Shown here piece after piece: positions 26,945-48,614 of a stretch of 64,000 nucleotides of DNA (position 1 is the stretch's first letter; each line of letters opens with the position of its first letter). Source of the DNA: Promethearchaeota archaeon (lineage in GTDB: Archaea; Asgardarchaeota; Lokiarchaeia; Sigyniarchaeales; SOKP01); assembly GCA_048939995.1 (NCBI GenBank), contig JBHLOY010000002.1:192001-256000 (forward strand). The letters are read 5' to 3'. Below the pieces are notes generated by a model, which had not been told where the DNA came from, did no database searches, and saw nothing but the letters and a program-made list of their open reading frames with translations. The position numbers were made by a program, and so were the translations under genes.

Positions 26945-27949
26945 TTAATAATTATTTTTTAAATCTAATTCCAAAAAAAGTCCATTTGAATTATTAAATA
27001 AAAGATTGAAGTTACATTCAGTAAGATAATCATAAGATTTTAAATAATAAACATTTAGTACTGATGCCGGAGAATGATCAAATCCTTCAACCCCATCGAG
27101 AAGCCGAGGAAAACCAAGATCATTTGGATTGTAATATAATATAAAATATGCACCAACATCTAGGTCATCATCTTCATACTTAAAGTGAATATTTCCAATT
27201 TTATGGGAAATAATCCCTGAAATATTAGCTTTCATGTTATTATGTTGAAATATATCAATAAATATGTCACCCTCCCTAGTAGAAAGGAATAAAGAAATAT
27301 TTTGATTAAGTTGTAAGTTATAGGACTTAAAAAATAAATCTCCCTCATCTTGAATTATTCCTGTGATATTACCTTTTAAAATACAATATGAAAAATCAAA
27401 TTGAATATCACCTTTATAAAGATTAACTATTATATTCTCCACAGAAATGCCAAACGGAACGATTATCTGAGTATCTCCTTGAACTCTAACTCTAATATCT
27501 ATATCACAAATCACATTTGCACTGAGAAAAATTAAGATTTGAATGACTTCAAGCAAGGATAATACCTCTATTAGGCTTAATTCTGGCTTGATTCTCATTG
27601 TAAAATTTACATACTCACTTGTATTTTGCCAATTAAAATCAAAATAGTCTAAATATGATTTTCCTGCTAAGCCTGAACCAATCATTTCAATATTTATATC
27701 TAATTTCGCATAATAATTAACTGGATTTACAATGTATTCTATTTCAACATCTCCTATGTCAATATCAATATTTAGTTCTTCCATATTTGAGGAACTGCTA
27801 GGATTATAAAAATATTGTAAAGTTTTATTGATATTACCGGATGTCGCAAGATTTGTTGAGAGAATGACGATAGGTAAGGAAAAAATGATGCTGAAGCTAA
27901 ATATAATCCCTAAAATGATAACTCTAATAGATTTATTTCGCATCATCAA
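26945..27949 (-). CDS. membrane-anchored DUF4097-like surface protein
   Basis: N-terminal TM; ELNIDIDIGDVEIEY and GD/GN beta repeats; paralog of 31685, 42418 and 10214. Confidence 0.75.
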   Translation of the reverse strand: MMMRNKSIRVIILGIIFSFSIIFSLPIVILSTNLATSGNINKTLQYFYNPSSSSNMEELNIDIDIGDVEIEYIVNPVNYYAKLDINIEMIGSGLAGKSYLDYFDFNWQNTSEYVNFTMRIKPELSLIEVLSLLEVIQILIFLSANVICDIDIRVRVQGDTQIIVPFGISVENIIVNLYKGDIQFDFSYCILKGNITGIIQDEGDLFFKSYNLQLNQNISLFLSTREGDIFIDIFQHNNMKANISGIISHKIGNIHFKYEDDDLDVGAYFILYYNPNDLGFPRLLDGVEGFDHSPASVLNVYYLKSYDYLTECNFNLLFNNSNGLFLELDLKNNY

Positions 27950-28055
27950 TTCTTCACATTAATAGGGCAAAAAACTTAAATAAATAATCAATTAATGATA
28001 TAGGGAAGAATATTATTTAAATCAAATCTCTAGGTATTAATTAAGTCTAACAACA

Positions 28056-28080
28056 TTCGAATTTTGGGTGAAGTCTCGAA
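28056..28080 (+). promoter_or_regulatory. 25-bp palindromic operator, copy A
   Basis: ttcgaattttgggtgaagtctcgaa, followed by gtcaaatct. Confidence 0.7.
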
Positions 28081-28153
28081 GTCAAATCTTTGATTTTGCA
28101 TTAAAGGCTAGCTTTTCTATAAGAGATAACTAGCTGGTTTTGGGTGCAAAAAA

Positions 28154-28193
28154 TTCGGACTTTGTGTGAAGTTTCGAAGCTAATTCTAAAAAT
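28154..28193 (+). promoter_or_regulatory. operator copy B plus TCTAAAAAT box
   Basis: ttcggactttgtgtgaagtttcgaa-gctaat-tctaaaaat, upstream of 28296. Confidence 0.8.
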
Positions 28194-28295
28194 TAATTGG
28201 TAGGATAAATTCTAATTGGCACTAATTTAACTACTGAAATTGTTGCCTTAACCAATTTAAATAAAAAAACAATCACAGAAAAAAGGTTTAAAAAA

Positions 28296-29609
28296 ATGAA
28301 AATGAAAACAAAATCAGGTATACTTATTGGAATTTTTACAATAGCAATGATAATCGGAGTTTTTACTTTGATAATTGGACCAGTCCGCGCTGATTCACCT
28401 ACTTTTATAGTATTTCCATCAGGTGGAGATGATACCGCAAACATCCAAACAGCATTCAATGATGCTATTGCAGCAGGACCAGGAAGCATAGTTCAATTGA
28501 CTTCAGGACAATTTTACACGAACGCTATTTTTGTTGAAAATTTCTATGGTACGTTTAAGGGGGCAGGCAAGCACAGTACTAAAATTGATGTACTTAAAGG
28601 TTTGGATAATACATTAGAGGGAGTAGTTGGTCCTGGTGGACCTTATTTATTTACGTTTGTAGGAGGAGATGTACACATCTCGGATTTAACTTTTGATATT
28701 ACACCTTATATGCCTGCTGAACCATGGGAAGATCCAGAATACCCATCATACGATTTAATATCAATTATCTTACTAACTGGCGAAACTAATTCCCGAATCG
28801 AAAATGTCAAATATATTGGACATGAAGGTACACTAGTTAATCCATTAGGAATAGGCTTTAATGTTAGAGTAGGAGTTGAATATCACTTTGGAACGGGAAA
28901 ACACATTATTACTAAATGTGACTTTGATTCGATATGGGGGGCTATTTCAGCATATGGATTATCTAATGTTGAAATGAAAATTTCATCAAATACAATTAAA
29001 GGAGGTAACTTCGGAGTAATTAATATGGATAATATCAATTCAAAATTTGAGATTACTTATAATGAAATAGAGACAATGTTTATATATGGCATATGGGCAT
29101 GGCAAGCAGGAATTATAGTTCCACCTACCCCTTCCCAGTGGAAAATAACTCATAATACTATAAGAGTGTCAAATCTTGCGGATGGTATAGGTTTAATGGA
29201 TGATCTACCTGAGAAATCACTTGAAGCAGTTGTCTCCCATAATAAGATTACTTTAGATAATACAATGTGGGGAGGCATTTGGACAGCGGGGATGCGGGAT
29301 ACTTTTATCTCTAACAATATCATTCGCGGTACAGGAGACTATGGCATTGCATGTGCTTTTCCCGAAAACAACTTATTGCTTGGAAACAATGTCCAAAATG
29401 TGGATGCCTCATGGGCTCCCATTGTCTTGATTTATGCAAGCGAATGTGTAATAGTTGGAGGATCTACAAAAACAAATGTCCTGGATATTGCTGGTTCCAA
29501 TAATATCATAGTTGGGATGAATAATATACAAGGCAATTCACCAGGCCCAGAAATCCAAGAAGCAATGGAACAAAAGAGGGAACTTATTCATTTGTTCCCG
29601 AAATTTTAA
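28296..29609 (+). CDS. secreted right-handed beta-helix (pectin-lyase/NosD-like) protein
   Basis: Signal peptide ending VRA-D, GGDDTANIQTAF motif, repeated ISxNxI / HNxI / GI turns. Confidence 0.8.
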   Translation: MKMKTKSGILIGIFTIAMIIGVFTLIIGPVRADSPTFIVFPSGGDDTANIQTAFNDAIAAGPGSIVQLTSGQFYTNAIFVENFYGTFKGAGKHSTKIDVLKGLDNTLEGVVGPGGPYLFTFVGGDVHISDLTFDITPYMPAEPWEDPEYPSYDLISIILLTGETNSRIENVKYIGHEGTLVNPLGIGFNVRVGVEYHFGTGKHIITKCDFDSIWGAISAYGLSNVEMKISSNTIKGGNFGVINMDNINSKFEITYNEIETMFIYGIWAWQAGIIVPPTPSQWKITHNTIRVSNLADGIGLMDDLPEKSLEAVVSHNKITLDNTMWGGIWTAGMRDTFISNNIIRGTGDYGIACAFPENNLLLGNNVQNVDASWAPIVLIYASECVIVGGSTKTNVLDIAGSNNIIVGMNNIQGNSPGPEIQEAMEQKRELIHLFPKF

Positions 29610-29643
29610 CAAAACCTATTTCCTTTTCCATATATTTGTAATA

Positions 29644-29703
29644 AAATAGAAAATGGAGGATAAATAAAAGCTTAATCCTCCAATTCTATTTCTTTTTTTT
29701 TTT
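29644..29703 (+). terminator. conserved 3' hairpin plus T-tract, copy 1
   Basis: aaatagaa-aa-tggaggat...atcctcca-a-ttctattt followed by T11. Confidence 0.7.
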
Positions 29704-29855
29704 AATTAATCAGGCTATAATGAGGGGTTTTGGAAGTTTTAATCAATAGGCGATCAAAAGTTTTAATTACGAAACTATCTAATTATGATTTTATAAGAAT
29801 ATGAAATCTGATAGATCGATTTTATTACTTAAAAATAGATTAACTGAAAATTAAA

Positions 29856-31637
29856 ATGTCTTTAGACAATAAAGGTTCAAAGAAAAAAATTCCTAAAAAG
29901 AAAGTTAGAGTAATAAAGAAAAAACCAGTTGCAGTTTTTGGAATAGTTGCTGCTGTGGCCATAGCAGGGATTATTGGTGGAATAACTATCTTTTTATATT
30001 CACCAGAGGAAAAAATTATATATATCTCATTCACAGATTTAGCTGCAGCTCAATCTGGTATTGATCCTCTTATAACCTGGGTTCCAGCTGATTATGAGAT
30101 ACTTAATCAAGTTGCTGAAGGTTTATTTACCCATGATTCAGCTAATCAACAATCCCAAATAATTCATAACCTTGCTATAAATCATTGGAGGAATGATAAT
30201 GCTACAGAATATACCTTTGAACTGAGACAAGGGGTTCAGTTCCATGATGGAACACTATTTAATGCAGCAGTGGTTCAATGGAATATTGATAGAATATACA
30301 CTTTAATTGAAAATGGTAAAATGCACTTTACTTCAAAACAGTTCTGGTTATTTTCCGATGGGACATGGATTATAAACCGTACTGAAATTATTAATAATTA
30401 TAATATAAAGTTTGTATTAAACAAACCTTATATCCCTCTTACTGCATTATTAGCTTCTGTTAATTCATTTATGGTTTCACCTACCTCAACACCTCAAAAC
30501 GATTTTATTCCACTAAACGGAACATTAATCGGAACTGGTCCTTATTTGTATGACGTTTGGAATAAGGATTATAATTTAGTACTCTCTTCCAATCCAAATT
30601 ACTGGGGCGGTAAACCTCAAATTGATAAGTTGATTTTCAAAGATTATGTAACTCCAGAAGATAAATTTGAAGCATTGATTTCTGGAGAACTTTCAATGTT
30701 AAGTGGTTACAATGAAATACACTCTCATGGTCATTATTGGGATTCCCTTGGAATTTATGATAATGATGTCCTGAATACTTTTATGAATGATCCTGATATT
30801 ATAGTAGAAGAAGGTCCTTCAGCGACCTATTTTGAATACTTACTGATGAACAATGAATTAATTAATGCAACTATGAGAAAAGCAATCTCTTACGCTTGTA
30901 ATTATTCAGCTTATATAGATAAGTGGTTAAGCGGTCATGGAATGAGACTTAGATCTCCTATTCCGGAAGGAATTTTATACTCAAACTCAACCGGTATTGA
31001 TGTTCCCTATTATAATATTTCTATAGCGCGACAAACTTTAAAAGAAGTGAATTGGAACGGATTAGCTAGTGCTTTACCTGCTGATGATAACATTTCTGCA
31101 GGTAATGAATGGGAACAATTGATAATTGACGGAACACCTTTAGCTACTTATAATTTTACATACATTAGTGGTATGCTAAATGGTATAGTTTTTTTAAATA
31201 TAACAAAAGAAAATCTTAGACAAATTGGAGTAAAAGTAGAAGCTGTTCCACTTTCTCCTGGAGAATATATACAAATTTTTTGGGAAACACCTCCTTATCA
31301 CTTAAATATGATTGAACTTTCACATATGGGGTATATTACAAGATTTAATGATCCTTGTAGTATTATCAACATTTTATGTTCAAATAAAGCTTTAGATTTA
31401 AATTATTGTCAAATAAATGATACTTTAGTTCAGCAATGGATGGAAGAGGCTCTAGGCGAAACCAATGAGGCTATAAGAGAACAGTTATATTATCAAATTC
31501 AAAAGCGTTTAATTGAAGAGGTTTTCCCGATGTGTTATCTGATTGCAAGAAATTGTTTTAAAATTTATAGATCCAATTTAAAAGACTTTGAGTTTAACCA
31601 TTTTAATCCTGTTTACAAAGATATCTACTTTATTTGA
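29856..31637 (+). CDS. family-5 solute-binding protein; copy 2
   Basis: LRQGVQFHDGT, IGTGPY, NPNYWG, MRKAISYA. Confidence 0.9.
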   Translation: MSLDNKGSKKKIPKKKVRVIKKKPVAVFGIVAAVAIAGIIGGITIFLYSPEEKIIYISFTDLAAAQSGIDPLITWVPADYEILNQVAEGLFTHDSANQQSQIIHNLAINHWRNDNATEYTFELRQGVQFHDGTLFNAAVVQWNIDRIYTLIENGKMHFTSKQFWLFSDGTWIINRTEIINNYNIKFVLNKPYIPLTALLASVNSFMVSPTSTPQNDFIPLNGTLIGTGPYLYDVWNKDYNLVLSSNPNYWGGKPQIDKLIFKDYVTPEDKFEALISGELSMLSGYNEIHSHGHYWDSLGIYDNDVLNTFMNDPDIIVEEGPSATYFEYLLMNNELINATMRKAISYACNYSAYIDKWLSGHGMRLRSPIPEGILYSNSTGIDVPYYNISIARQTLKEVNWNGLASALPADDNISAGNEWEQLIIDGTPLATYNFTYISGMLNGIVFLNITKENLRQIGVKVEAVPLSPGEYIQIFWETPPYHLNMIELSHMGYITRFNDPCSIINILCSNKALDLNYCQINDTLVQQWMEEALGETNEAIREQLYYQIQKRLIEEVFPMCYLIARNCFKIYRSNLKDFEFNHFNPVYKDIYFI

Positions 31638-31684
31638 CATATCCTCTGAATTAAAAGGCTTAGCAAATAAAATAAGAGACTTAT

Positions 31685-32686
31685 TTAATAATTATGGAGT
31701 TCTAGTTCTTCATAAATACCAATTGGAAAATTAAACATCCAATGATAATTATATAATGAGGGATAATCATCAGAAGTTATATGATAAACATCTGTCCCGT
31801 TTACTGCGATCACATTGTATGCAAAACCTATAAGCTCAGCAATTTTTTGATTAATAGCATAATCATCTGGGTGTACATGTAATATAAAGTATGCTCCAAC
31901 CTCAGCGGTATTGTCTCTATAAGTCAATAGATAATTACCCGTAATTATTGTGATATTCCCAGTTACATTAGCATTAGTAGCTTTATTCTGAGAGATTTCA
32001 ATATATACATCACCATCATTAGTATAAAGGGACCAATTGCAATTTTGCGTGTATTCCACATCATAACTTCTTACTTTTATATCCCCTGTGTTTTGAATAA
32101 TTCCAGAAATATTTCCTTCTAGAATACAATAAAAGAAGTCATATTGAATATTACCTTTCATCAAATTGGTTATGATATTTCCAACTGAGACCCCAAGAGG
32201 AATAGTTGCTTTAGAGCTTCCTCTAATATCAACCATAGTATTGATATCATAAAGTACATCAGCTTTAAGTGCTACGATTATATCAACATTTTTTATCAAA
32301 GATAAAATATCACCTTGCTTTATGCCTTTTTTTAACTCCATTGTAAAATTTACAATAGTGCTTGTATTTTGCCAAAGGATATCGAAATAATCTATATGCG
32401 ATTTTCCAACTAAACCTCGACCAATCATTTCAATATTTATATCAATTTTTGCACAATAACTTATTGGATCTGTTATATATTCAATTTCAACTTCTCCTAT
32501 ATCGATATCAATATTCAGTTCATTCAAAAATGAAGGTGAGCTAGAATTGTAATAGAATTGAAGAGATTCATCTATTCTGCCATAAGATGAGAGACTTATT
32601 GAAAAAATAACAATGGGCGTCGAAAAAATGATAATTAAACTGAATATAAGCATTATAATGATAATTCTAATATCCTTCCTTACCAT
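31685..32686 (-). CDS. membrane-anchored DUF4097-like surface protein
   Basis: ELNIDIDIGEVEIEY; close paralog of 26945. Confidence 0.75.
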   Translation of the reverse strand: MVRKDIRIIIIMLIFSLIIIFSTPIVIFSISLSSYGRIDESLQFYYNSSSPSFLNELNIDIDIGEVEIEYITDPISYCAKIDINIEMIGRGLVGKSHIDYFDILWQNTSTIVNFTMELKKGIKQGDILSLIKNVDIIVALKADVLYDINTMVDIRGSSKATIPLGVSVGNIITNLMKGNIQYDFFYCILEGNISGIIQNTGDIKVRSYDVEYTQNCNWSLYTNDGDVYIEISQNKATNANVTGNITIITGNYLLTYRDNTAEVGAYFILHVHPDDYAINQKIAELIGFAYNVIAVNGTDVYHITSDDYPSLYNYHWMFNFPIGIYEELELHNY

Positions 32687-32802
32687 TGTTAAATCTTTCC
32701 AAGAGTAGATAACAAAATTACAAATAATGATATAGGTGAGAATACTATTTAAACCAATCCGTAAAATGCCTTGCTAAAGCGGGTTTTAGTATACTTATAA
32801 TA

Positions 32803-32843
32803 TTCGAACTTTGAGCGAAGTTTAGAAGCTATTTCTAAAAATA
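32803..32843 (+). promoter_or_regulatory. operator copy C plus TCTAAAAATA box
   Basis: ttcgaactttgagcgaagtttagaa-gctatt-tctaaaaata. Confidence 0.8.
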
Positions 32844-33047
32844 GATACCATGTTTAGTTAAACCATTGTCTAAAGTTTTTGTGTGTTACAATGTGTTTCT
32901 TTGTTTTGCTAAAATATTGTAAAAGACCCTACCAATTAATCATTCTTTTTTTTTAGTATTTTTTCTTGAGCATAATTTTTTTATATACATAACCCTTATA
33001 AGCTAATTATTAGAATACTATTATTGTGGTGATTCCACCCAATTCTC

Positions 33048-34049
33048 TTGATTAATTTTGATCTTATTGAACGTTTTTTTTCGTCTATTGCAATAGTAGT
33101 AATAATTTTTTGTTTTATATTTTATTTTTCTCAAGGGCGTAAGAAAGAGGTTCTACATGAAAAAATTTTGATGTATAGTTTTGCAAGTTTTTGGCTCAGT
33201 ATTTCTTTAGCAAGAATATTTTATTATTTTTCTGACATTTTTTTAGAGGGAACTTACTCAGGTGATTTAAGCACACTTATTGAATCATATGATCTCTTAA
33301 ATTATATTATTCTTTACTTTTATCTATATTCTCATATATATATTTTAATAAGTATTATAGCATTAAGTGTTATGTTTATATGGTTTTCAATAAAGTCAAA
33401 AAAAGAATTTCAGCTAGTTTCCTCAGTAGTAGCCATTGGATTTACAATATTTTTAATAGGATGGGTTTTTGAAACGACGGCATTAAAGCAATTAAACCTT
33501 ATACCTCCAGCATTACCATCTATTTTTATAATAGTAGGAACCATAATTGCAACGATACCTCTAATTGTGGATATTGAGTTTTTTTCAAGCAAATTAATTA
33601 ATTGGTTAGTTTTAATTTCAATTGTTTTGATTTTACTTTTTTTTAGTTTAACCATTTTTACGAATCTCCCATTAGTACTTTTAAGTCAGATTATAATCTT
33701 AATTTCAACCTCTGTTTTAATTATGGTGATCATTTTTGTGGCATTTTACATAATCAAGAGAATTAAAGTATCAGAAGTTCAGGAAATAGTTCCAAAGGAG
33801 GAACTTAAAGATTTTATAAAGACTTTTATGAAGCCTGCTACCATTACAATCGAGGAAATTCAATTATATAAAGAGAAAGGATTATGTTTGGTGTGTAAGA
33901 GTAAAGTCACACGATTAAATTATGTCTGTCCCAAATGCTATGCATTATATTGTTTAAAATGCTCAAGAGCATTAACTAATTTAGAAAATAGTTGTTGGGT
34001 CTGTGAAACCCCCTTTGATGAATCTAAACCTATGAAAAAGTCTAAATAG
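33048..34049 (+). CDS. multi-pass membrane protein with C-terminal C8 RING-like zinc finger (candidate E3)
   Basis: About 7 hydrophobic segments; CLVC-x10-CPKC-x4-CLKC-x10-CWVC-ETPF. Confidence 0.72.
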   Translation: MINFDLIERFFSSIAIVVIIFCFIFYFSQGRKKEVLHEKILMYSFASFWLSISLARIFYYFSDIFLEGTYSGDLSTLIESYDLLNYIILYFYLYSHIYILISIIALSVMFIWFSIKSKKEFQLVSSVVAIGFTIFLIGWVFETTALKQLNLIPPALPSIFIIVGTIIATIPLIVDIEFFSSKLINWLVLISIVLILLFFSLTIFTNLPLVLLSQIIILISTSVLIMVIIFVAFYIIKRIKVSEVQEIVPKEELKDFIKTFMKPATITIEEIQLYKEKGLCLVCKSKVTRLNYVCPKCYALYCLKCSRALTNLENSCWVCETPFDESKPMKKSK

Positions 34050-34074
34050 AATAATTAATAGGAAGGTAAAGCTT

Positions 34075-34284
34075 ATGATTGAATTATTAATATTGCTGCT
34101 TCTAATATTTTTAGCAATCCCTTATATTATATTGTCTTTTATAACATTCTGGGTATATAAAGATGCAAAAAAAAGAGATATGAATGTATTTGCTTGGATT
34201 TTGGTAATTTGGTTAATACCATTCTTTATTGGGTTGGTCATTTATTTAAAGATTAGAATACAATATTCTGTCACGAGATTATAA
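34075..34284 (+). CDS. small PLDc_N-like 2-TM membrane protein
   Basis: WVYKDAKKR....W......P..G...YL pattern. Confidence 0.75.
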   Translation: MIELLILLLLIFLAIPYIILSFITFWVYKDAKKRDMNVFAWILVIWLIPFFIGLVIYLKIRIQYSVTRL

Positions 34285-34303
34285 TATTTTCATAATTTCT
34301 AAT

Positions 34304-34450
34304 TTACTTACATTCTTTGGAATCTTGTTCAATAAAAAATTTTAAGACTTTATCATTTGGAGGGCGATGTTCTGGAATTTTTTTTGCTTCAATTTTCAAA
34401 AATCTTAACTCTTCACTATTGTAATTATGGGTTTTGCTTTTTTTAGTCAC
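34304..34450 (-). CDS. possible small protein (48 aa)
   Basis: Hand translation from GTG: MTKKSKTHNYNSEELRFLKIEAKKIPEHRPPNDKVLKFFIEQDSKECK*. Confidence 0.35.
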   Translation of the reverse strand: MTKKSKTHNYNSEELRFLKIEAKKIPEHRPPNDKVLKFFIEQDSKECK

Positions 34451-34549
34451 CTGATTTCACTCAAAATTTCCGTTAAATTATACTTATATTAATTAATGTT
34501 AATAACTATAATAAAATTAATTACATTTATGTAAGCAATATTAATTTCG

Positions 34550-35566
34550 ATGTTAAAGCCTCCTCAAATCTTATTTACCGGAGAAAATGGTGTTGGTAAA
34601 ACAACTATCTTGAATTTATTTCCAGAAGATATTATTTTAGAATTAGACGATAACTTTAATGAAATTTTTCAAAAGCAAGTTAATATTACTGGATTCAAAG
34701 GTATAGAACATTGTATTTTAAGAGAAATTGATTTAAGAGAATTAGTAGACAATTTTTTTTCTTTTCAAAAACTACTACAGGCTCTTGATATCATTCTCAT
34801 TGTAACTGATTCAACTGAACGAAATATTAAATATACTTATAATTTATTTTCTGAATTGAAATATAAATTACCTAAAATTGATTTTTATATAATTGCTAAT
34901 TTTCAAGACAGAAAGTCAATTTCAATGCCCATAGAAAAAATTGAATCTATATTAAAAGAGAAGGTTTTTGGATATTCGGCCATCCAAGAGGATTCAAAAG
35001 ATTCTATGACTGAAATTATTAAAGAGATTTTAGAAATTTCAATTATTAAAAAACAAGGAAAAAAGCTTTCATTTGATAAAATTGATTACAATACAATTTG
35101 GTCAGACATCGAAGAAGCAAGATTGTTGGAAAAGAAAGGAGACCATTATGCGGCATCAAAAAAATTCTCAATTGCTGGATCTAAATTTAAAATACTAAAT
35201 TCAAATGAGGAAAAAGAAGAATTTAAAGCGTTATACAATTTATGTAAGGCTTGGGAGTGTATAGAATTAGCTGAAGAATATGAGGATGTTTCGAAGTTTG
35301 CTGAAGCTGTGAAATTTTTTGATCAAGCAATTGAATCTCTATATGATGAGAAATTAAAATTTTTAGTATCCGCTAATTTAGCACATTGTGAAGCTTTAAA
35401 ATTAGGAATGGAGTCAGATACATCAGATCAACTACATATTAAAGAAAAATTATATTTAGAAATAATCGATTTAATTAACAAAGCAGTTAATTTATATAAA
35501 AGAGGAGGTTTTGAAAAAGAAGCGGAATTTGCTTTAACTACCTTGAATAAATTAAAGAGCCTTTAA
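34550..35566 (+). CDS. degenerate Ras/Arf-like small GTPase fused to TPR-like helical domain
   Basis: GENGVGKTT P-loop, VTDST, ANFQD (G4-like), YSA (G5-like); no DxxG; C-terminal helical repeats. Confidence 0.75.
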   Translation: MLKPPQILFTGENGVGKTTILNLFPEDIILELDDNFNEIFQKQVNITGFKGIEHCILREIDLRELVDNFFSFQKLLQALDIILIVTDSTERNIKYTYNLFSELKYKLPKIDFYIIANFQDRKSISMPIEKIESILKEKVFGYSAIQEDSKDSMTEIIKEILEISIIKKQGKKLSFDKIDYNTIWSDIEEARLLEKKGDHYAASKKFSIAGSKFKILNSNEEKEEFKALYNLCKAWECIELAEEYEDVSKFAEAVKFFDQAIESLYDEKLKFLVSANLAHCEALKLGMESDTSDQLHIKEKLYLEIIDLINKAVNLYKRGGFEKEAEFALTTLNKLKSL

Positions 35567-35619
35567 TTGAGTAAATTTAAAATTTTAGTAAAATATCTTA
35601 AAACATTACAGGAATCAAA

Positions 35620-36114
35620 TTGACGTTATTCGAAAAAGATTTTCTATTTCCAGTATACATCGATAAAAATACTTTAAATCATATTGATGAATTATGCAAA
35701 AATTCTGATAGAGAACTTTTTGGCTATTTAATTGGTTTAATTTTAAAATGGAAAAAGAATAAATATATTATTATAAAAGAACAGATTTATATTAAAAATA
35801 CAGTTAGAAGTAATAAATTTAACACATCCCAAATTGAAGGAACTGCTGGAAAATACGAACAGGAATTTCAAAAGTTGAAACATAGTATGAGGAACGAGAA
35901 TTTACGAGTTGTAGGATGGTGGCATTCCCATATCAATTTAGGGTGCTTCTTATCCTTAACTGATATTCATACACAAGAATATTTTTTTCCTGAACCTTAC
36001 CAAGTTGCATTAGTAGTTGATCCTATTCGAGAGGAATACAAATTTTTTACATTAGATGCAGGCTCAAAAAAGAAATACAAAACGCTAAGTTATGCTATTA
36101 TATCTTCAACTTAA
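35620..36114 (+). CDS. JAB1/MPN/Mov34 (Rpn11-like) metalloisopeptidase
   Basis: ELFGYLIG, VVGWWHSH...FLSLTD, VALVVDP JAMM motif. Confidence 0.92.
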   Translation: MTLFEKDFLFPVYIDKNTLNHIDELCKNSDRELFGYLIGLILKWKKNKYIIIKEQIYIKNTVRSNKFNTSQIEGTAGKYEQEFQKLKHSMRNENLRVVGWWHSHINLGCFLSLTDIHTQEYFFPEPYQVALVVDPIREEYKFFTLDAGSKKKYKTLSYAIISST

Positions 36115-36131
36115 CAATTTAGTTTATATCT

Positions 36132-37013
36132 ATGCGTAAGAAAGAAAATCAAGGAATTAAAGTGATTGGAACGGATTCCATAGATTCAGATAGATTCGAT
36201 CGCCAAAAGAGAATTATTGGTTGGGATCAAACTATTATTTCTAATGCGACAATTATGGTAATTGGTGCTGGAGCTACTGGAAATGAAGTTATAAAAAATT
36301 TAGCTTTAGTCGGAGTTGGAAAGATATTTTTAATTGATTATGATTTCATTGAAACTTCAAATTTAAGTCGTTGTGTGTTGTTTAACCCTAAAGTAGCAAA
36401 GGATAAAGAATACAAAGCAGATGTTATTAAAGATGTGTGTAGAGACTTAAATCCTGATGTCGAAGTTGTTTCAATTAAAAAAGACTTAAATTCAATAGAT
36501 AAAACTCTTTATAGCAAGTGTGATGTAATATGTTCTTGCTTAGATAATCTTGAAGCACGGATAGAAGCTAACAATTATGCATATTATAATCGAATTGCTT
36601 TTGTTGATTCTGGGATCGACGAATTTTTTGGTTCAGTTCAAGCAGTATATTCAGAAGTTGAAAATTCAGCTTGTTTGCAATGCGGTATATCAGAAAAGGA
36701 TTTGGATTTAATGTGGAAAAAATTTTCTTGCACTGGAGAGGAATTAAGGTCTGAAGAAGGTGAAACCACAAATAAAATAGCAACAATCATTACGACTACT
36801 TCAATAATAAGCGGTATTCAATCTCAGCAGGTTTTAAAATTTTTACTTGGAATTAAATATTATAAGGAAGATAAAAAATGGAATCCTTATATTGGAGCAC
36901 CATTGGTTGGTAAGCAATTAATTTATAATGGCCTAACAAACAGTTTCAACATTATTGATAAAATAAAAGATCCAAATTGTTGGACTTGCTCATACAAAAA
37001 ATCTAAGATTTAA
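36132..37013 (+). CDS. ubiquitin-like activating enzyme E1 (ThiF/UBA family)
   Basis: RFDRQ, GAGATG, DYDFIETSNLSR, CLDN..AR, CLQC, FSC (catalytic Cys), CWTC. Confidence 0.93.
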   Translation: MRKKENQGIKVIGTDSIDSDRFDRQKRIIGWDQTIISNATIMVIGAGATGNEVIKNLALVGVGKIFLIDYDFIETSNLSRCVLFNPKVAKDKEYKADVIKDVCRDLNPDVEVVSIKKDLNSIDKTLYSKCDVICSCLDNLEARIEANNYAYYNRIAFVDSGIDEFFGSVQAVYSEVENSACLQCGISEKDLDLMWKKFSCTGEELRSEEGETTNKIATIITTTSIISGIQSQQVLKFLLGIKYYKEDKKWNPYIGAPLVGKQLIYNGLTNSFNIIDKIKDPNCWTCSYKKSKI

Positions 37014-37030
37014 ATTAGGAGGAAATATGG

Positions 37031-37558
37031 ATGCCAGAATTACCCTTTGAGATATGGAAAGAAAGAGTAAATAATGAGATAAAGATCCTAAGAAATATTA
37101 GCCTCATTGAAAATAAATCTATAGCATGGCATGATAATAGTGTAGAATTATGGATTAATTTAAGTGCCTTTGGATTCGTTAAAAGAGAAATTGAAGGAGT
37201 TATCAATGTAAAACCTCAGATGAATCACCGAATTCTCATTAAAATAAATAGATCCTTTCCATATCCAGGAGGGATTGATTTTGCTTGGTATTCAGAAATA
37301 TTTCACCCAAATATCCATCCCATTGAATTAAAAGGATTGAAAACTATAGGCACAGGTTATATTTGTTTAAATATTTTAAGACAATGGACAAAATTATCAG
37401 ATTTGGAAACTACAGTTAAATCCCTTGAAAAATTAGTAGAGAATCCCAATCCAGAGGATCCTCTTCAATATGATATTTGTATTGAAGCTGCTGAATTCTT
37501 TAAAAGAAATTCAATTCAAGAACTTAAAAAGATTTATAAAAAAGAAAATTATATTTAA
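37031..37558 (+). CDS. ubiquitin-conjugating enzyme E2
   Basis: FPY..., IFHPNI, GYICLNIL..W, L..L...PNP.DPL. Confidence 0.92.
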   Translation: MPELPFEIWKERVNNEIKILRNISLIENKSIAWHDNSVELWINLSAFGFVKREIEGVINVKPQMNHRILIKINRSFPYPGGIDFAWYSEIFHPNIHPIELKGLKTIGTGYICLNILRQWTKLSDLETTVKSLEKLVENPNPEDPLQYDICIEAAEFFKRNSIQELKKIYKKENYI

Positions 37559-37824
37559 GAATTAAAAAACAAACCTCCAATAACTTTTGTCCATAACATC
37601 AAAATATCATATTCTTTTAACCCAAATTTATGAATTGCCTCCCTAATTGATATTGCATTCGGTAATTCCTTTTCCTTATACACTAAAGCATAAGAACGTT
37701 GTTCTGAACTTATAAAACCCATATGTTTAACAACAATTTCTATAATACGCTCTATTATATGATGTTCCTTTACATCTAACTTTATTCTTTTGCCTGTTCT
37801 GGTATCTTCTATTGATAATTTCAT
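37555..37824 (-). CDS. ubiquitin-like protein with GG and 5-residue C-terminal propeptide
   Basis: beta-grasp pattern, GLKEYDIL.L, ends TKVIGG-LFFNS; convergent with E2. Confidence 0.85.
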   Translation of the reverse strand: MKLSIEDTRTGKRIKLDVKEHHIIERIIEIVVKHMGFISSEQRSYALVYKEKELPNAISIREAIHKFGLKEYDILMLWTKVIGGLFFNS

Positions 37825-37875
37825 TTTTTTTTTTTAATTTTTCTTTTAAAGACAAATAAATTTATTCAACTAATC

Positions 37876-37915
37876 ATTTTTAGATTTGAGTTCGAAACTT
37901 TTCACAAAGTTCGAA
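37876..37915 (-). promoter_or_regulatory. operator copy D plus TCTAAAAAT box upstream of the Ubl gene
   Basis: Minus strand reads ttcgaactttgtgaaaagtttcgaa-ctcaaa-tctaaaaat, ending 52 nt before the Ubl ATG. Confidence 0.82.
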
Positions 37916-37922
37916 TTAGAGA

Positions 37923-39218
37923 TTATTCTTGTTCTTTCAACTTTTTATTAATTTCATCCAATATTTTATATTTTGGAAAATCTTTTAAAATTGAGGTTAA
38001 AATGGTTTTTTCTCTTTTTATTCTGTTATAATCCTCTAATTTTAGGTTAATTATATTTTGGAAAGCTAAACCCTTAAACTTGTCTACTAAATCATCTGAA
38101 ATTGTCTCTTTTTGATATTTCCCGAATAAGAAATTGATGTAATCTGGTACAAATTTCTTTAGAGGTGATTTTATATTTCTATCAAAGAGTTTATCAGAAA
38201 TATCATTTAAAATATTGTCTAATAAATCTACGGTTTGTGAATTTCTTTCTTCTTTAGAAATATCAGGTTGTAATCTTTTGAGATAACTAAACTTTAGAAT
38301 GTTCTCATCTATAATTAAATGCAACATTTTATCAATTTTGTCATCCTCTCGAAAATAATATACCACTTCATCATTAAGTCTTAAATTGAAAAATTTTGTA
38401 TCATATAAATCCTCTTCAGTAATCTTTTGCGTACAAAAAGTAAGTGTAGCTAGTTTAATATTATATTTAAGAGAAAAATTTTCTTGTGAAATATATTCTG
38501 GATATCGACTTGGATGATTTATAGAAAGAAATAATAATATTTTATAAAAATCTTCTTTTGATGGGAGTATATTCTCAATGAAGCTATAATTCAAATGATT
38601 GATTAAATCTAGAAATAAAATTTCAATTTGGCTATCTTCAACATTCTGCTCTTTAAGAAACCTTCTGACGTTTTCTTTGATACTTTCTATTTTATCTATT
38701 TCTTCTTCTAAAACTGATTGATAATCTAATTGGTATCTTTTCAGCATTTTATTATATCGTTCCTCACCTATTCTAGTGATTCTGTATTCCATGTTTTCAC
38801 TATCAACAAAACCTTTTTTCATTAAAAGATTTAAATATTTTGATAGAGAATTATGATTGAGAGAAAGAGGTTTTTCAATAAAATCTGACCACTTTAAATA
38901 GTCGTTATTAAATAACATCCACAAGATGATATGAGCATAATTTCTCTTGTTTAAAATGATCTCTGGAGGATATCTTAATTTTCTCTCAAATGAATCTTTA
39001 AATTTTAAATCTATATATCTTTTTTTACCTTCAGCAGTAGCTAGATAAACTCCTTTACTCTTTTTCTCAACATATCCGTTTGAAATTAATAATTTCATGT
39101 ATTTAGACAATGTAGCTAAGCTGATTTCTAACGGCTCATCTAAAAAGACAGACCAATTACATTCCTCATTATTATTAAGCATCCAGAGGATTATATATTC
39201 AAAATCTTTCTTCTCCAT
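37923..39218 (-). CDS. tandem winged-helix DNA-binding protein (candidate regulator)
   Basis: Two repeats of IILWML.NN...WS.F...PL.....LSKY...L...G.V......Y..T..G. Confidence 0.8.
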   Translation of the reverse strand: MEKKDFEYIILWMLNNNEECNWSVFLDEPLEISLATLSKYMKLLISNGYVEKKSKGVYLATAEGKKRYIDLKFKDSFERKLRYPPEIILNKRNYAHIILWMLFNNDYLKWSDFIEKPLSLNHNSLSKYLNLLMKKGFVDSENMEYRITRIGEERYNKMLKRYQLDYQSVLEEEIDKIESIKENVRRFLKEQNVEDSQIEILFLDLINHLNYSFIENILPSKEDFYKILLFLSINHPSRYPEYISQENFSLKYNIKLATLTFCTQKITEEDLYDTKFFNLRLNDEVVYYFREDDKIDKMLHLIIDENILKFSYLKRLQPDISKEERNSQTVDLLDNILNDISDKLFDRNIKSPLKKFVPDYINFLFGKYQKETISDDLVDKFKGLAFQNIINLKLEDYNRIKREKTILTSILKDFPKYKILDEINKKLKEQE

Positions 39219-39427
39219 GCCTGATGGGTTAATTAAATCTTCTGGAGGATAATTGATTTTTTTAGCACAGATTTTATTTATACACCTATTATTATTTCTT
39301 TATTTTAATTTTCAATTAAATTTTGAGTAATCTCGCTTATATATAAGATATAACAAATATGTTTAAAAAATTTCATTTAAAAATAAAAATCCTCATATTC
39401 AATATTTTTTATTTAAATAACTCAAAC

Positions 39428-39452
39428 TTCGGATTATATGCAAAATTCCGAA
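39428..39452. promoter_or_regulatory. operator variant, copy E'
   Basis: ttcgga-N13-tccgaa, same 25-bp length, between the regulator and 39596. Confidence 0.55.
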
Positions 39453-39481
39453 CTGTTTCTTGGAATAATAAGTGGAAGATA

Positions 39482-39522
39482 TTCTAAGTTCGCTAAAGGT
39501 TTCGAACTTAAATCTAAAAATA
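39482..39522 (+). promoter_or_regulatory. operator copy E plus TCTAAAAATA box
   Basis: ttctaagttcgctaaaggtttcgaa-cttaaa-tctaaaaata. Confidence 0.72.
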
Positions 39523-39595
39523 AAGATTAAGCATAATAACCAATTGACACAAATTTGCCAAAAAAGAAAAAGAAAAAAAAAAAAGATGAAAAAAA

Positions 39596-40366
39596 ATGAA
39601 TAGAAATAACCTATCTAAATTGATTCTCTTAACCTTTCTGATGTTCGCTATTTTCAGTTTTATACCAGTAGTTGCAGCAAGCTCAGGTAATGCAACCAAA
39701 AGACCATTAGATGATTGGTTAGATCCGAATTACGCTGCTTTCCCGTGGGGCGAAGAAAATTGGGCTTTTTATGACTTTTGGAGCCCTTATTCTGGTTTAG
39801 TGACGAAGATGGGGTTACCTTGGCCTTTGGCTGGCTTCGGCCCATTTGTTAACGACATGATATACGAAAATAGTTTAGTAATAGGAGATACTATAATTGA
39901 TGGTAATATTAAAGAACGAGCATTAAACGATGGAACTGCTTTAATAACCCTGCAATTAAATGTGAAAAACGCTCCATGTTCAGTTTATGATTACTTCGAT
40001 TTTATTCTTTACTGTCTTGGGGCTGCTCCTTACCCTCAAGCCGTATTGGGAGATGGAATTGATGGGTATATCGATTATACCGTGTTAGTTAAATTTTATA
40101 TCCCTGAACCTGGAGCAGAGCTACCAAATGTATTTGATATGTGGTATTATTATGTCTCGATTAATATTCACGGTATTGGTTATGGAACATTAACAGAACG
40201 TGCAGTTGAGCTCGGTTTTGCCGAAACTGCTGGTGCACCAGGAATGGTAGAACTTCATCACATAGCCCTTTTTAAGCCTGATTTCAAAGAAACTCATCCT
40301 AAATATGATCCATTTTATGGTGATTTATGGCCAGTTGACTCCGTTGAAGTTTATGAATTGAGTTAG
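39596..40366 (+). CDS. secreted protein of unknown family (paralog of 43681)
   Basis: Signal peptide; RPLDDW, NVKNAP, HGxGxGT, HPxY, LWxVD shared with 43681. Confidence 0.8.
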   Translation: MNRNNLSKLILLTFLMFAIFSFIPVVAASSGNATKRPLDDWLDPNYAAFPWGEENWAFYDFWSPYSGLVTKMGLPWPLAGFGPFVNDMIYENSLVIGDTIIDGNIKERALNDGTALITLQLNVKNAPCSVYDYFDFILYCLGAAPYPQAVLGDGIDGYIDYTVLVKFYIPEPGAELPNVFDMWYYYVSINIHGIGYGTLTERAVELGFAETAGAPGMVELHHIALFKPDFKETHPKYDPFYGDLWPVDSVEVYELS

Positions 40367-40422
40367 AAGCAGATTAATGGAGAGAAATACCAAGTGAGGG
40401 TTGAAATTTTTAAATAATAATA

Positions 40423-40508
40423 TAGAACAAGGAGGAAAAAGATTAGAATAATGGCTTCTCGAATGACCACATCCAAACCACTATTCCTCCATTCTTTTTT
40501 TTTTTTTT
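40423..40508 (+). terminator. conserved 3' hairpin plus T-tract, copy 2
   Basis: tagaa-caa-ggaggaa...ttcctcc-a-ttct then long T run. Confidence 0.62.
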
Positions 40509-40643
40509 AAAATATTCTTTTTAATTTTTGCTTCTTTTTAGATTCTGATAAAATTATATCTTAAATCTGATTATCATAGACAGAAAAGTTTAAAAATAGA
40601 ATCAACTAATCTTCAAGTTATACATAAATGTGAATTCTATTAA

Positions 40644-42356
40644 ATGATTAAAATGATAGAAAAAGCTTCTTCTAAAAAAAGATTTCCTAATATCAAAGAA
40701 TTCAAGAAAATAATCATAGTTGGAGGGTCAATAATAAGCTTAGCGATAGTTGGGATTATAAGTGGAATTATTATTATGGGAGATATCCCGCAAGGAGGTA
40801 TTCTTAAAGTAGGTATAACTAAACCTATTGGAGAAATTGACCCTCTTATGTATAGCTTTTCTTCAGAAGAAATAGTAATTAATCATGTTACCGAGACGTT
40901 ATTTGATAATATTTATATAGGTGGTAAATCTCAAACTCTTCCTCATCTAGCATTAGATGGAAATTGGAGTTCGGACTACCTAAATTTCACATGCACACTT
41001 AGAAAGAATGTCATGTTCCATGACGGAACGCCATTTAATGCTGCAGCCGTTAAATGGAACTTCGATAGAATTCCTCAAATTATCGATCCATCACTTCCAG
41101 ATTGGTATTGGTGGGCTTACCTATTTCTTTTACCAGATGGGCGCTGGATTGTAAATAAAACTCTAGTCTTAGATTCCCATATTGTAAAATTTGTTTTAAA
41201 TGATGTTTTTGTACCTTTTCGAGAATTATTAACTCATAGTACTACAAGTATTTTATCACCATCATCAACCCCTGCGGATAAACCCCTAAATATACACATT
41301 GATAATTTAGTTGGAACCGGTCCTTTTATATATGATGGTTATGAACCTAATGTCAATATGTCATTATCTCCTAATCAGAATTACTGGGGAGCAAAACCTA
41401 AAATTGATGAGGTAATTTTAAAGTTTTATTCTCCAACTAATCGTACTAATCGTATTAATATTTTATGGAATGCGCTTTTAGCAGGAGAAATTCATATAGT
41501 AGACCGAGATTTTATTAAGTTTTTAATAATGTACTATCCAGACCGATCTATCGAACTCCTTAAAGGAGTTGCAGGAATTACAGTTCAACAAAAGCCTACT
41601 ATAAGCAATTATTATGTTTTTTTTTATCCTAAACTTGTTAATAGTACAATGAGAAAGGCAATATCTTATGCAATTAACTATTCTAATATACTTGAAATAG
41701 TTCCTAACTCTATAACAGCCAGATCCCCAATTCCAGAAGGTATCTCTTACTCTAACATTACTGGTATTGACATTCCTTATTATAACATTTCAAAGGCGAG
41801 ACAGATGTTAATTGACGAAGGTTGGCCTGGAACAGCGGGTTTAACGGCAAATGACAATATTACAGCAGGAAACGAATGGGAACAATTAGTAACTAATGGA
41901 TCCCCTCTTGCAATATATAATTTATCTTATTATACAGAGAATCCATACAATGAATTACCACCAATTCCTTTTCCAGAAAATCTTAAACAAATTGGAGTCA
42001 ATGTATCATGTCGATCAATTTGGAGTGGTGCTCCGTCTCAACTTGAAACATTAATGTGGATGTATGACTATAACGATCCACACACTGGTATTATGATGGA
42101 TTATCATTCAAAATGGACTTTATGGACCGACTTTAATGTTAGTGTATTAGATGAATTGATAGAAGAAGGAATTAAGGAGATAAACCCTGTTTTAAGAGAA
42201 GCGATATACTATAATATTCAAAAACTTATAATCGAGGAAATTTGTCCTGTTATATTTACTCTCTCTCCACGAAATTTAGATATATATGCATCAAATTTAA
42301 TGGACTGGCAAATTTATCCATTCAAAATAGTATTTAAAACAGTTCACTTCGTCTAA
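40644..42356 (+). CDS. family-5 solute-binding protein; copy 3
   Basis: LRKNVMFHDGTPFNA, VGTGPF, NYWG, MRKAISYA. Confidence 0.9.
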   Translation: MIKMIEKASSKKRFPNIKEFKKIIIVGGSIISLAIVGIISGIIIMGDIPQGGILKVGITKPIGEIDPLMYSFSSEEIVINHVTETLFDNIYIGGKSQTLPHLALDGNWSSDYLNFTCTLRKNVMFHDGTPFNAAAVKWNFDRIPQIIDPSLPDWYWWAYLFLLPDGRWIVNKTLVLDSHIVKFVLNDVFVPFRELLTHSTTSILSPSSTPADKPLNIHIDNLVGTGPFIYDGYEPNVNMSLSPNQNYWGAKPKIDEVILKFYSPTNRTNRINILWNALLAGEIHIVDRDFIKFLIMYYPDRSIELLKGVAGITVQQKPTISNYYVFFYPKLVNSTMRKAISYAINYSNILEIVPNSITARSPIPEGISYSNITGIDIPYYNISKARQMLIDEGWPGTAGLTANDNITAGNEWEQLVTNGSPLAIYNLSYYTENPYNELPPIPFPENLKQIGVNVSCRSIWSGAPSQLETLMWMYDYNDPHTGIMMDYHSKWTLWTDFNVSVLDELIEEGIKEINPVLREAIYYNIQKLIIEEICPVIFTLSPRNLDIYASNLMDWQIYPFKIVFKTVHFV

Positions 42357-42417
42357 TATATGCCAAGCACATTGGTCTAAAAAACCATAAAAAAATTAAA
42401 AAATTTTTAACATAAAT

Positions 42418-43467
42418 TTATTCAATATAGGGTATACTTGTCAGATCCATGTCAAAATTTCCCTCTAGGATTTCAAACCTGATATTGTAATAATACTTAA
42501 CGATGTTAAGTAGTAAATCATCTGATGTAAAATAAAAAATACCCTCATATGTAGTATGTGCAATACGATTGAAATCAAAACCCTTTACAAGCGGACAGAT
42601 CAGACCAGGAACCTGCAATACACAAGTAGGAAATCCACTTTTATCCATGAATTCCCCTCCGTAGGGAATTTCAAGCATTGCACCAATATCAGCGCTACTA
42701 TCCTCATAAAGAACAAATATCTCTCCATTATTAACTTTGAATATCCCTGTTATGTTAGCACCAATATCTCTATATTGAAGAACTTCAATATCTATATTAC
42801 CCTCTCTAATGTTTATGTCCCAACTACTATTTTGAGCATATTGTACATCATTTGACTTGAAAATTAAATTTCCATCATTTATATTTCCAATTATGTTTCC
42901 TTGAATTGAACAGTGCTCAAAATTATACAAAATATTTCCATTGGAGACGTTTGTTAATAAATCTCTAAAGGAAACGCCATAAGGAATAGTTATTTCAAAG
43001 TTTCCTTTAGTTAGATTGGTAATAATATCAAATACAATATCTTTTCTAATATTTACAACGATGCTTATTTCTTTCTTTAACCAATATAGTGGATTAAACC
43101 AATCATCTGATATTATCTCCATTCTAAAATCTACTGGAAAACTTGAATTGTTCCAAGAAATGTTTAAATAATCATTGTACGATTGACCTGCTAAATTTTC
43201 CCCAATCAAGGCAATATTTACGTCTATTAACACGTAATAATCAACTGGGGGATCAATATATCTTATTTCTACATTTCCCTCATCAGCGTTAATGTACAAC
43301 TTTTCAATAGATGCTGGTGAGCTTGGTTCATAAGTAAAAGAACAAGATTCGTAAATATGGTCATACAATGAAGACCTGAATGATAATAATTGGATTGGAA
43401 TAATTATTATAAGGGAACCCCATAAAATAACCAATATAGCTACTCCAATAACAATTTTTTTCGCCAT
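42418..43467 (-). CDS. membrane-anchored DUF4097-like surface protein
   Basis: IEKLYINADEGNVEIRY and repeated GN turns; paralog of 26945 and 31685. Confidence 0.75.
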   Translation of the reverse strand: MAKKIVIGVAILVILWGSLIIIIPIQLLSFRSSLYDHIYESCSFTYEPSSPASIEKLYINADEGNVEIRYIDPPVDYYVLIDVNIALIGENLAGQSYNDYLNISWNNSSFPVDFRMEIISDDWFNPLYWLKKEISIVVNIRKDIVFDIITNLTKGNFEITIPYGVSFRDLLTNVSNGNILYNFEHCSIQGNIIGNINDGNLIFKSNDVQYAQNSSWDINIREGNIDIEVLQYRDIGANITGIFKVNNGEIFVLYEDSSADIGAMLEIPYGGEFMDKSGFPTCVLQVPGLICPLVKGFDFNRIAHTTYEGIFYFTSDDLLLNIVKYYYNIRFEILEGNFDMDLTSIPYIE

Positions 43468-43587
43468 TTTTAAATCTATTAATTACAAACAATTAATTCT
43501 ACAATCAATTAGATAAGGTAATTATCTATTTAAATTAATCCCTCAACACTTTTTTTTTTTGACCCTAAAACAGTACAAATTTTAAAA

Positions 43588-43628
43588 TTCGAACTTTGCG
43601 CGAAGTTTCAAAGTCAAATCTAAAAATA
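43588..43628 (+). promoter_or_regulatory. operator copy F plus TCTAAAAATA box
   Basis: ttcgaactttgcgcgaagtttcaaa-gtcaaa-tctaaaaata. Confidence 0.82.
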
Positions 43629-46156: not shown

Positions 46157-46162
46157 ACTTTT

Positions 46163-48055: not shown

Positions 48056-48209
48056 CTGATTTAAGTTTGAAATGTATAAATAAATTGGTAATTAATTTTT
48101 ACTTAAAATTACTACACTATATTTATAATAGTTATTTTTTTTATCTTTTAAAGTTATATGTGTTAACATTTTCATGATTTTTTTGGATTTATAATAAGTT
48201 TCATCTGGA

Positions 48210-48614
48210 ATGAACATGAAAAGCATGAAAGAAATATGTAAAAATTGTGGAATCTGTTGTCAGAACACAGAAATGTTGTTATCAGAACAAGACATTCGGT
48301 TAATTGAAGAGAAATTGTTGAATATAACTAGAAATGATTTTACAGAATTAAATGAAAGAGGAATGCATCAATTAAAAAATAAAAATAGTCATTGTGTCTT
48401 TTTGGATAATAGCTCAAAAATGTGTACTATATACAAAATCAGACCCCAAGGTTGCAGATTTTATCCCATAGTATATGACTATAATAAAAAAGTGTGCCTT
48501 TATGATAGAGACTGCCCAAGGGTTAAAAAATTTTACTTAGATGACTATAAATTCAAAAAAGTATGCGAAAAAATTAAAAATTTTATTAAATCGGGATTAA
48601 AAGTTAAATTATAA
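48210..48614 (+). CDS. YkgJ family zinc/Fe-S cysteine cluster protein
   Basis: CKNCGICC, CVFLD, CTIY..RP..CR.YP. Confidence 0.88.
   Translation: MNMKSMKEICKNCGICCQNTEMLLSEQDIRLIEEKLLNITRNDFTELNERGMHQLKNKNSHCVFLDNSSKMCTIYKIRPQGCRFYPIVYDYNKKVCLYDRDCPRVKKFYLDDYKFKKVCEKIKNFIKSGLKVKL

Follow-up and report, generated by a model that had tools for sequence, protein, structure and literature searches.

A putative second ubiquitin-like conjugation pathway, possibly controlled by supply of its modifier, in one family of Lokiarchaeia-type archaea

The 64,000-nucleotide stretch of DNA analyzed here (the window) is taken from the Asgard archaeon Promethearchaeota archaeon, where it lies on contig C17 (JBHLOY010000002.1, positions 192,001–256,000) of a 3.75-Mb genome with 30.5% GC. 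The closest homologues carry Promethearchaeota or Lokiarchaeota labels, which makes the source a Lokiarchaeia-type Asgard archaeon. The window contains a gene cluster for conjugation of a ubiquitin-like protein (Ubl), in which the activating (E1) and conjugating (E2) enzymes are encoded on one strand and the modifier on the other, behind a predicted promoter element of its own. Based on the comparisons described below, we judge it somewhat better than an even call that the cluster specifies a second, noncanonical Ubl conjugation pathway of one Lokiarchaeia-type family and that this pathway is controlled by supply of the tag.

Results

Catalytic residues support a complete Ubl cascade

A JAMM/JAB metalloprotease (35620–36114), an E1 of 293 residues (36132–37013), and an E2 (37031–37558) are encoded on the plus strand and the Ubl (37555–37824) on the minus strand, the arrangement given by an earlier reading made from the sequence alone (the sequence-only reading). 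The same reading proposed that the Ubl cascade of this Asgard archaeon is complete, and the conserved catalytic residues support that prediction. The JAB, which is predicted to act in Ubl maturation and removal, has an intact motif (E32 and H102-x-H104-x7-S112-x2-D115) and is an Rpn11-like JAMM protein (best Protein Data Bank (PDB) match 6FJV, E = 7e-8). The E1 is minimal: its single adenylation domain has a GAGATG motif, two CxxC motifs, and Cys200 in the crossover loop, the helical Cys domain, C-terminal ubiquitin-fold domain, and inactive adenylation domain are absent, and the chain ends 7 residues past the last CxxC (canonical E1s have 394–410 residues). The E2 has HPN92–94 and Cys112, with an insertion ∼10 residues ahead of the Cys. 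These catalytic residues are kept across relatives of the JAB (n = 21), E1 (n = 33), and E2 (n = 38). A prediction of the E1-Ubl complex scored 0.02, and no verdict on interaction was drawn from this score. The source genome also holds another JAB-E2-E1-Ubl cluster (C23:190485–195816), whose two Ubls end in Ala-Gly instead of Gly-Gly, as well as further E1s and JABs.

The Ubl has 89 residues, 84 up to and including Gly-Gly and a nonconserved tail of 5. Its model is a single domain with a β-grasp/ubiquitin fold (predicted local distance difference test (pLDDT) of 87) that matches NEDD8 and ubiquitin at E of about 1e-6 and 18–25% identity, so the earlier description of a GG-LFFNS end on a protein distant from ubiquitin is borne out. 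The 4-bp overlap between the Ubl and E2 stops that had also been pointed out is present (TTAA, common to both genes, 37555–37558), but it is not conserved. In a 98% identical relative (L001), the Ubl ends at GG and is separated from the E2 gene by 26 bp; among Ubl homologues Gly-Gly is terminal in 29 of 120, and the others have unrelated short tails. The LFFNS tail and the overlap were therefore rejected as conserved features, and sequence comparison marks both as local accidents. The convergent orientation of the E2 and Ubl genes was found in 45 of 45 loci. Larger proteins with an internal Ubl domain of the window type, apparently in tandem, are encoded at L085:7911–9539 and L086:2–1297.

The Ubl gene shares a predicted operator with genes for secreted proteins

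An operator/TATA unit belonging to the Ubl gene had been proposed, and it was recovered as a predicted element at 37876–37916 on the minus strand, 51 nt before the Ubl start. It consists of a 27-bp palindrome (TTCG-N17-CGAA core at 37890–37916), in which complementarity is confined to the outer bases and the spacer is free to vary, followed by the TATA-like AAATCTAAAAAT. This 41-bp motif has six copies in the 3.75-Mb genome, all of them intergenic and inside one 16-kb part of the window (28055–43627), and they score 36–56 bits, well above the next genome match (16) and above shuffled sequences (0–2 matches above 12). A genome-wide regulon was rejected, as the six sites are all local. Because two weak genomic variants of the motif have a canonical TATATA at the corresponding position, AAATCTAAAAAT may be a weak TATA box. 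A TATA calibration based on tRNA genes (9 only) gave no usable result, and a scan with a sigma-70 promoter model, which is not apt for archaea, returned matches at chance level only.

On the plus strand, two operator copies (28055–28193) precede a gene for a secreted right-handed β-helix protein (28296–29609), and two operators, one palindrome-only (39427–39453) and one full (39481–39521), lie between the gene for a probable regulator described below and that for a secreted β-rich protein of 256 residues (39596–40366). One more (43587–43627, +) precedes the gene for its secreted 265-residue paralogue (43681–44478, +). The model of the 256-residue protein has a pLDDT of 94 and no clear fold match in the PDB or the Atlas (best Z = 6.0, template-modeling score < 0.5). 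Eight paralogues of this family are encoded in the source genome, and only the two named here have the operator.

A further copy (32802–32842, +) lies 205 nt before a gene for a membrane protein with a C4C4 finger. It faces this gene only in the source genome. The nearest relative has no such copy, a T-tract comes after it at about 32944, and in genome G089 the equivalent slot holds an operator and a surface-protein gene; the copy is thus probably what remains of a surface-protein gene since lost. It was also rejected as a conserved promoter for the enzymes.

A strict form of the motif was searched in 135 genomes of the source family, with reversed sequences as a control. It was present in 25 of the 135 genomes, always clustered, and gave no matches in the control. 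The 70 distinct sites comprise 21 before a Ubl gene, 42 before genes for signal-peptide-like proteins, and 7 without a gene in range; none precedes a gene for a JAB, E1, E2, or GTPase. The 42 secreted or surface targets are β-helix proteins (15), a Loki-CTERM-like anchor family (15), the 256/265-residue family (9), and others (3).

A tandem winged-helix protein is the probable regulator

Directly upstream of the Ubl operator is a gene for a tandem winged helix-turn-helix (wHTH) protein of 431 residues (37923–39218, −), which the sequence-only reading had missed. The source genome encodes eight such paralogues, and the short ones, which have no TPR tail, form one clade (100/100) in a tree of which only the short/long split was used, some rows being trimmed of the second helix-turn-helix. 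The short clade occurs in 21 of the 135 family genomes, the motif alone in 4, and neither in 110. Because all 21 genomes with the short clade also carry the motif, the wHTH protein is probably the regulator that binds the operator. Operators also occur in its own upstream region, and the gene is probably autoregulated. In searches with the regulator, the Atlas gave generic wHTH matches only (under 0.9), and profile searches gave no WYL or CapH-type match.

Sites of archaeal activators are typically located immediately upstream of a nonconsensus transcription factor B recognition element/TATA box (PMC5512572), and the window operator, directly upstream of the TATA-like box, fits this geometry. 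This placement makes activation the likelier sign, and we lean moderately toward the wHTH protein acting as an activator.

The seven longer wHTH paralogues in the source genome (634–988 residues; C37:24513, C28:293322, C28:312951, C28:319705, C38:11799, C38:16779, and C1:1152) are possibly a family of local regulons. Several have a small-GTPase gene or a gene of the secreted family as a neighbor, the gene at C37:24513 is preceded by a variant palindrome that has a canonical TATA, and a 613-residue relative in L076 has TPRs.

Enzymes and operator-linked Ubls often occur in separate locus types

A window-type E2 is encoded in 69 of the 135 genomes of the source family and in two of three checked genomes of f4, a family in the same taxonomic order; at E = 1e-12, sampling of the other Asgard families gave none. 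At most loci (type A), genes for a longin-GTPase, JAB, E1, and E2 converge on an operator-less Ubl gene, and the sequence-only reading had missed this family majority with the same enzymes. Type B loci (12) carry no JAB, E1, or E2 gene; here genes for a C4C4 protein, a small transmembrane protein, and a short GTPase converge on an operator-linked Ubl gene beside the regulator. The window is a hybrid of the two, as are G010, G087, and G138. Types A and B occur together in many genomes (G018, G021, G057, G059, G082, G088, G106, and G133), and a window-family E2 is encoded in 19 of the 21 regulon genomes, often at another locus. In a Ubl tree, operator-linked and operator-less sequences separate on one branch (90/69, from few columns).

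The Gly-Gly end is retained in all 17 operator-linked Ubls and is terminal in 11, compared with 4 of 44 operator-less Ubls, a difference that is expected if operator-linked copies are made away from a JAB. The Caldiarchaeum subterraneum protein CsRpn11 was shown to trim such a tail, and random tails are compatible with JAB trimming (PMC6043591). The statement that the pro-Ubl needs JAMM cleavage suits the window Ubl; it does not suit the many operator-linked copies that already end in GG.

The E1, E2, and Ubl belong to a separate archaeal clade

The nearest relatives outside the family are Caldarchaeales loci (L017–L020) that encode an E1, a Ubl-GG-E2 fusion, and a JAB, in genomes that also hold a canonical ubiquitin operon. 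The window E1 is 34.5% identical to its Caldarchaeales relative (E = 4e-64), and the Ubl profile matches the fusion Ubl at E = 7.6e-6 compared with 0.27 for the canonical Calditenuis ubiquitin. A phylogenetic comparison with the canonical Asgard system, suggested alongside the sequence-only reading, set the E2 apart: in an unrooted tree, one clade (98/91) comprises the window E2, the fusions, and further archaeal E2s, many of which have a Ubl either fused or next to them, and it is split from the canonical Asgard, Caldarchaeales, and C23 E2s (100/94). Because all three proteins point to the same Caldarchaeales operon, the E1, E2, and Ubl are best read as traveling as a set, and these sequence relationships assign the cluster to a separate archaeal clade, distinct from Bil, from Bub, and from the canonical Asgard/Caldiarchaeum ubiquitin system.

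Archaeal Ubl-GG-E2 fusions beside a JAB occur at L123–L126 as well as at L017–L020, with the minimal E1 in the Caldarchaeales; the architecture resembles BubAB with a cysteine E2. Other Ubl-E2 fusions of the same clade (L121:5234–6696, P0168; also P0144, P0170, P0176, and P0185) have neither Gly-Gly nor the catalytic Cys and adjoin a small GTPase and DUF835.

A membrane C4C4 protein and a pseudo-GTPase accompany the cascade

Upstream of the JAB gene on the plus strand, the cluster encodes a polytopic membrane protein (33048–34049) with at least six transmembrane segments and a C-terminal C4C4 finger (Cys280–319), a 69-residue protein with two transmembrane segments (34075–34284), and a degenerate small-GTPase domain with TPR-like helices (34550–35566). 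The 69-residue protein, whose gene was left out of the earlier list although it lies within the span, accompanies the C4C4 protein across loci. The C4C4 protein had been called RING-like; it is a membrane protein whose C4C4 finger matches RNF4, p44, and PHD fingers about equally and all weakly. Its relatives adjoin the Ubl gene in both operator-linked and operator-less loci, and a C4C4 or small transmembrane gene stands directly upstream of the operator-less Ubl gene in 26 of 44 cases. The protein is a candidate membrane E3 or substrate receptor. A stand-alone copy of the C4C4 finger (69 residues) is encoded at C11:490041–490250 in the source genome.

The term pseudo-GTPase was apt: the P-loop is intact, REID replaces DxxG at G3, and G4 is NFQD. 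The protein is a shorter version of a longin-GTPase(-TPR-nitrilase) protein. Because its gene is upstream of the JAB gene in 18 of 20 loci and is retained beside enzyme-less Ubl copies, the GTPase is the best candidate for a substrate or partner of the tag. The long form at L004:3747–6389, directly before a JAB gene, has a longin-like domain, a degenerate GTPase, a TPR-like region, and a C-terminal nitrilase (CN_hydrolase).

Elsewhere in the window, three cassettes (25157–27949, 29856–32686, and 40644–43467) each pair a family-5 solute-binding protein gene (+) with a convergent gene (−) for a protein of 333–349 residues with a single transmembrane segment; they have no adjoining permease gene and accompany the regulon in relatives. 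The minus strand of 45206–59288 holds repeated paralogous membrane-protein modules (direct repeats D1, D5, D7, and D10).

Discussion

A proposed pathway controlled by tag supply

In the pathway that we favor, the JAB would trim the tail after Gly84 and reverse conjugation; the E1, probably a homodimer, would adenylate the tag and take it on Cys200; and the E2 would take it on Cys112 and pass it to target lysines. The cascade residues and synteny are observed, and we infer the activity from the C. subterraneum pathway. The GTPase-JAB-E1-E2 genes form an operator-less unit at the sequence level that would be expressed constitutively. The wHTH protein would bind the palindrome upstream of the weak TATA box and most likely activate the genes for the Ubl and for secreted or surface-anchored proteins. 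Conjugation might then occur near the membrane, where the C4C4 protein would serve as an E3 or receptor and the pseudo-GTPase would be a substrate or partner. The weakest step is the arena: that the system serves the cell envelope, in surface remodeling or an envelope-stress response, is a tentative proposal that falls a little short of even. Taken as one full account, in which a wHTH activator switches on a dedicated Ubl paralogue with surface proteins and the minimal E1 and E2 with a polytopic membrane E3 tag a GTPase-like or membrane target, the scheme is doubtful; if it held, this signal-induced Ubl system would be an archaeal forerunner of inducible Ubls and of membrane-receptor ubiquitin signaling.

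Several observations weigh against this view. The sequence-only reading held that the modifier shares its switch with secreted proteins and not with the enzymes; the 70-site count bears out the shared element, but about 50 of the 69 enzyme-bearing genomes are without the regulon and its operator, so the regulation is lineage-specific. In G089, a 99% complete genome with a type B Ubl, the queries used did not recover the family E1 or E2. The TATA assignment of AAATCTAAAAAT comes from sequence alone, the C4C4 finger resembles RING and PHD fingers about equally weakly, and the family genomes are kin, so that counts among them are not independent.

Alternative explanations

If the pathway were an inducible antiviral one of the ISG15 or Bil kind, infection would induce the Ubl, which would be attached to proteins of the virus. 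The gene content matches the four genes of Bil, the E1, like BilD, is without a ubiquitin-fold domain, an extra loop close to the Cys is common to the E2 and BilB, presence is patchy (69 of 135 genomes), and Bub operons likewise come with dedicated regulators. However, the E1 does not have the BilD architecture, and the regulator has no WYL or CapH-type match. Bub operons sit in mobile or defense loci with CapW or CapH; unlike a mobile defense element, the island analyzed here has one and the same alanyl-tRNA editing gene as its neighbor in many genomes. Its flanking genes are peptide-binding, surface, metabolic, and transport genes, among whose 40 proteins PADLOC found three isolated generic matches, and within the cluster it found generic JAB and E1 matches only. 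A search for copies of the Ubl in viruses or phages found none. With the defining features failing and neither a defense neighborhood nor viral copies found, the antiviral or Bil/Bub-type function put forward by the sequence-only reading is unsupported, and we regard this explanation as quite unlikely.

It is similarly improbable that the operator is properly a part of the surface-protein cassettes and that the Ubl gene came to lie behind it by rearrangement, its regulation being incidental. Such an origin would fit the absence of the operator from most systems, the tendency of operator cassettes to be duplicated or swapped and to leave remnants such as the copy at 32802, and the gene order of the window, in which the GTPase-JAB-E1-E2/Ubl block appears to be inverted compared with G059 and G080. 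Against it, 21 distinct operator-Ubl sites are kept in two genera, with Ubls down to about 60% identity; in G114, G121, G136, and G347 a gene lies between the regulator and the Ubl gene, each with its own operator; and in G108 and G133 the operator-linked Ubl has no adjacent regulator.

The operator-linked Ubl might also act mainly without conjugation, by binding either the pseudo-GTPase or the membrane protein with the C4C4 finger. The 12 loci that keep the Ubl with the GTPase, small transmembrane, and C4C4 genes after loss of the JAB, E1, and E2 genes favor such a role, as does G089, but the Gly-Gly end in 17 of 17 operator-linked copies (exposed in 11), the E2 encoded in 19 of 21 regulon genomes, and the adjacent, intact enzymes of the window leave it with a low probability.

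That the repeated motif is a recombination site or RNA hairpin and not a transcription factor site is very improbable: its imperfect symmetry and its clustering within 16 kb, next to swapping cassettes, would fit such a site, but it always faces a start codon 3–200 nt away and is followed by a fixed TATA-like box, its complementarity is limited to the outer bases around a free spacer, it co-occurs with a DNA-binding protein clade, and no integrase was seen among the protein families listed.

Implications of a proposed control by tag supply

As far as our literature search reached, published work on archaeal ubiquitin covers the canonical operon and its link to ESCRT. The search, with most subscription journals outside its coverage, found no paper on the second Caldarchaeales operon (L017–L020), none describing the E1/E2/Ubl clade or the motif, and nothing relevant on an Asgard ISG15-like system. 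The simpler E1 of the second clade nonetheless serves an E2 and may be intermediate between MoeB/SAMP-type and canonical enzymes. Modifier paralogues under separate control, usually deemed a eukaryotic trait, appear to exist in Asgard archaea, and the regulator-operator pair defines a concrete predicted regulon. The value of these points falls if the regulation is no more than a local peculiarity of one lineage, as the ∼50 operator-less genomes allow.

Comparison with known systems

The canonical archaeal operon encodes ubiquitin, an E1, an E2, a small RING protein, and an Rpn11-like JAMM protein (PMC5654768, PMC6043591), and the C. subterraneum E1 has a helical Cys domain and a C-terminal ubiquitin-like domain (PMC5654768). 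The window resembles the C. subterraneum and Asgard operons in its GG-tailed pro-Ubl, Rpn11-like JAMM, Cys E1, HPN/Cys E2, and nearby zinc-finger protein. It differs in that the 293-residue E1 is without the helical Cys and ubiquitin-fold domains, the E2 is in a separate clade, and a membrane C4C4 protein stands where the small RING-H2 protein is. The Ubl is also distant from its canonical counterparts (18–25% identity to ubiquitin and NEDD8, compared with 31% for C. subterraneum ubiquitin), is encoded convergently with its own operator, and does not have a cotranscribed layout. The Caldarchaeales operon is closer, being the nearest relative for the E1, E2, and Ubl and having the same minimal E1; there, fusion of the Ubl to the E2 forces equal amounts of the two, whereas the window Ubl is free and appears to be separately controlled.

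Like the window, BilABCD, a single operon with shown anti-phage activity (10.1101/2023.09.26.559546), groups a Ubl, E2, JAB, and E1, with an E1 that lacks a ubiquitin-fold domain and an E2 with an extra loop. BilD, however, has inactive and active adenylation domains and an 80-residue Cys domain (IAD-AAD-CYS), and the window E1 has one adenylation domain. Type I Bub systems (10.1101/2024.11.21.623953) share with the Caldarchaeales members of the clade a Ubl-E2 fusion cut by a JAB and are regulator-associated, but they use E1 Tyr and E2 Ser oxyesters, a JAB-E1 fusion, and BubE (DUF6527), whereas the window has conserved Cys200 and Cys112 and separate genes in place of JAB-E1, Ubl-E2, or E2-E1 fusions, and no PF20137 match was found among the cluster proteins. 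SAMP/UbaA systems are E1-only, without an E2, and loci of the window type always have an adjacent E2; the window E1 scores 80 bits against the UbaA model, for which the cut-off is 450.

Among eukaryotic systems, ISG15 has tandem Ubl domains, whereas the window Ubl has a single domain. The E1, E2, and E3 of ISG15 are co-induced with it. The ISG15-like comparison made by the sequence-only reading is therefore a poor one, as the operator is absent before the window enzymes, the reverse of the ISG15 layout. Stress-induced polyubiquitin genes, such as yeast UBI4, add an extra regulated modifier gene to constitutive copies and enzymes. The regulator and tag of UBI4 and the window are unrelated and the likeness is one of analogy only, but the logic is the same, and by that analogy stress-induced polyubiquitin genes are a closer counterpart of the window system than ISG15.

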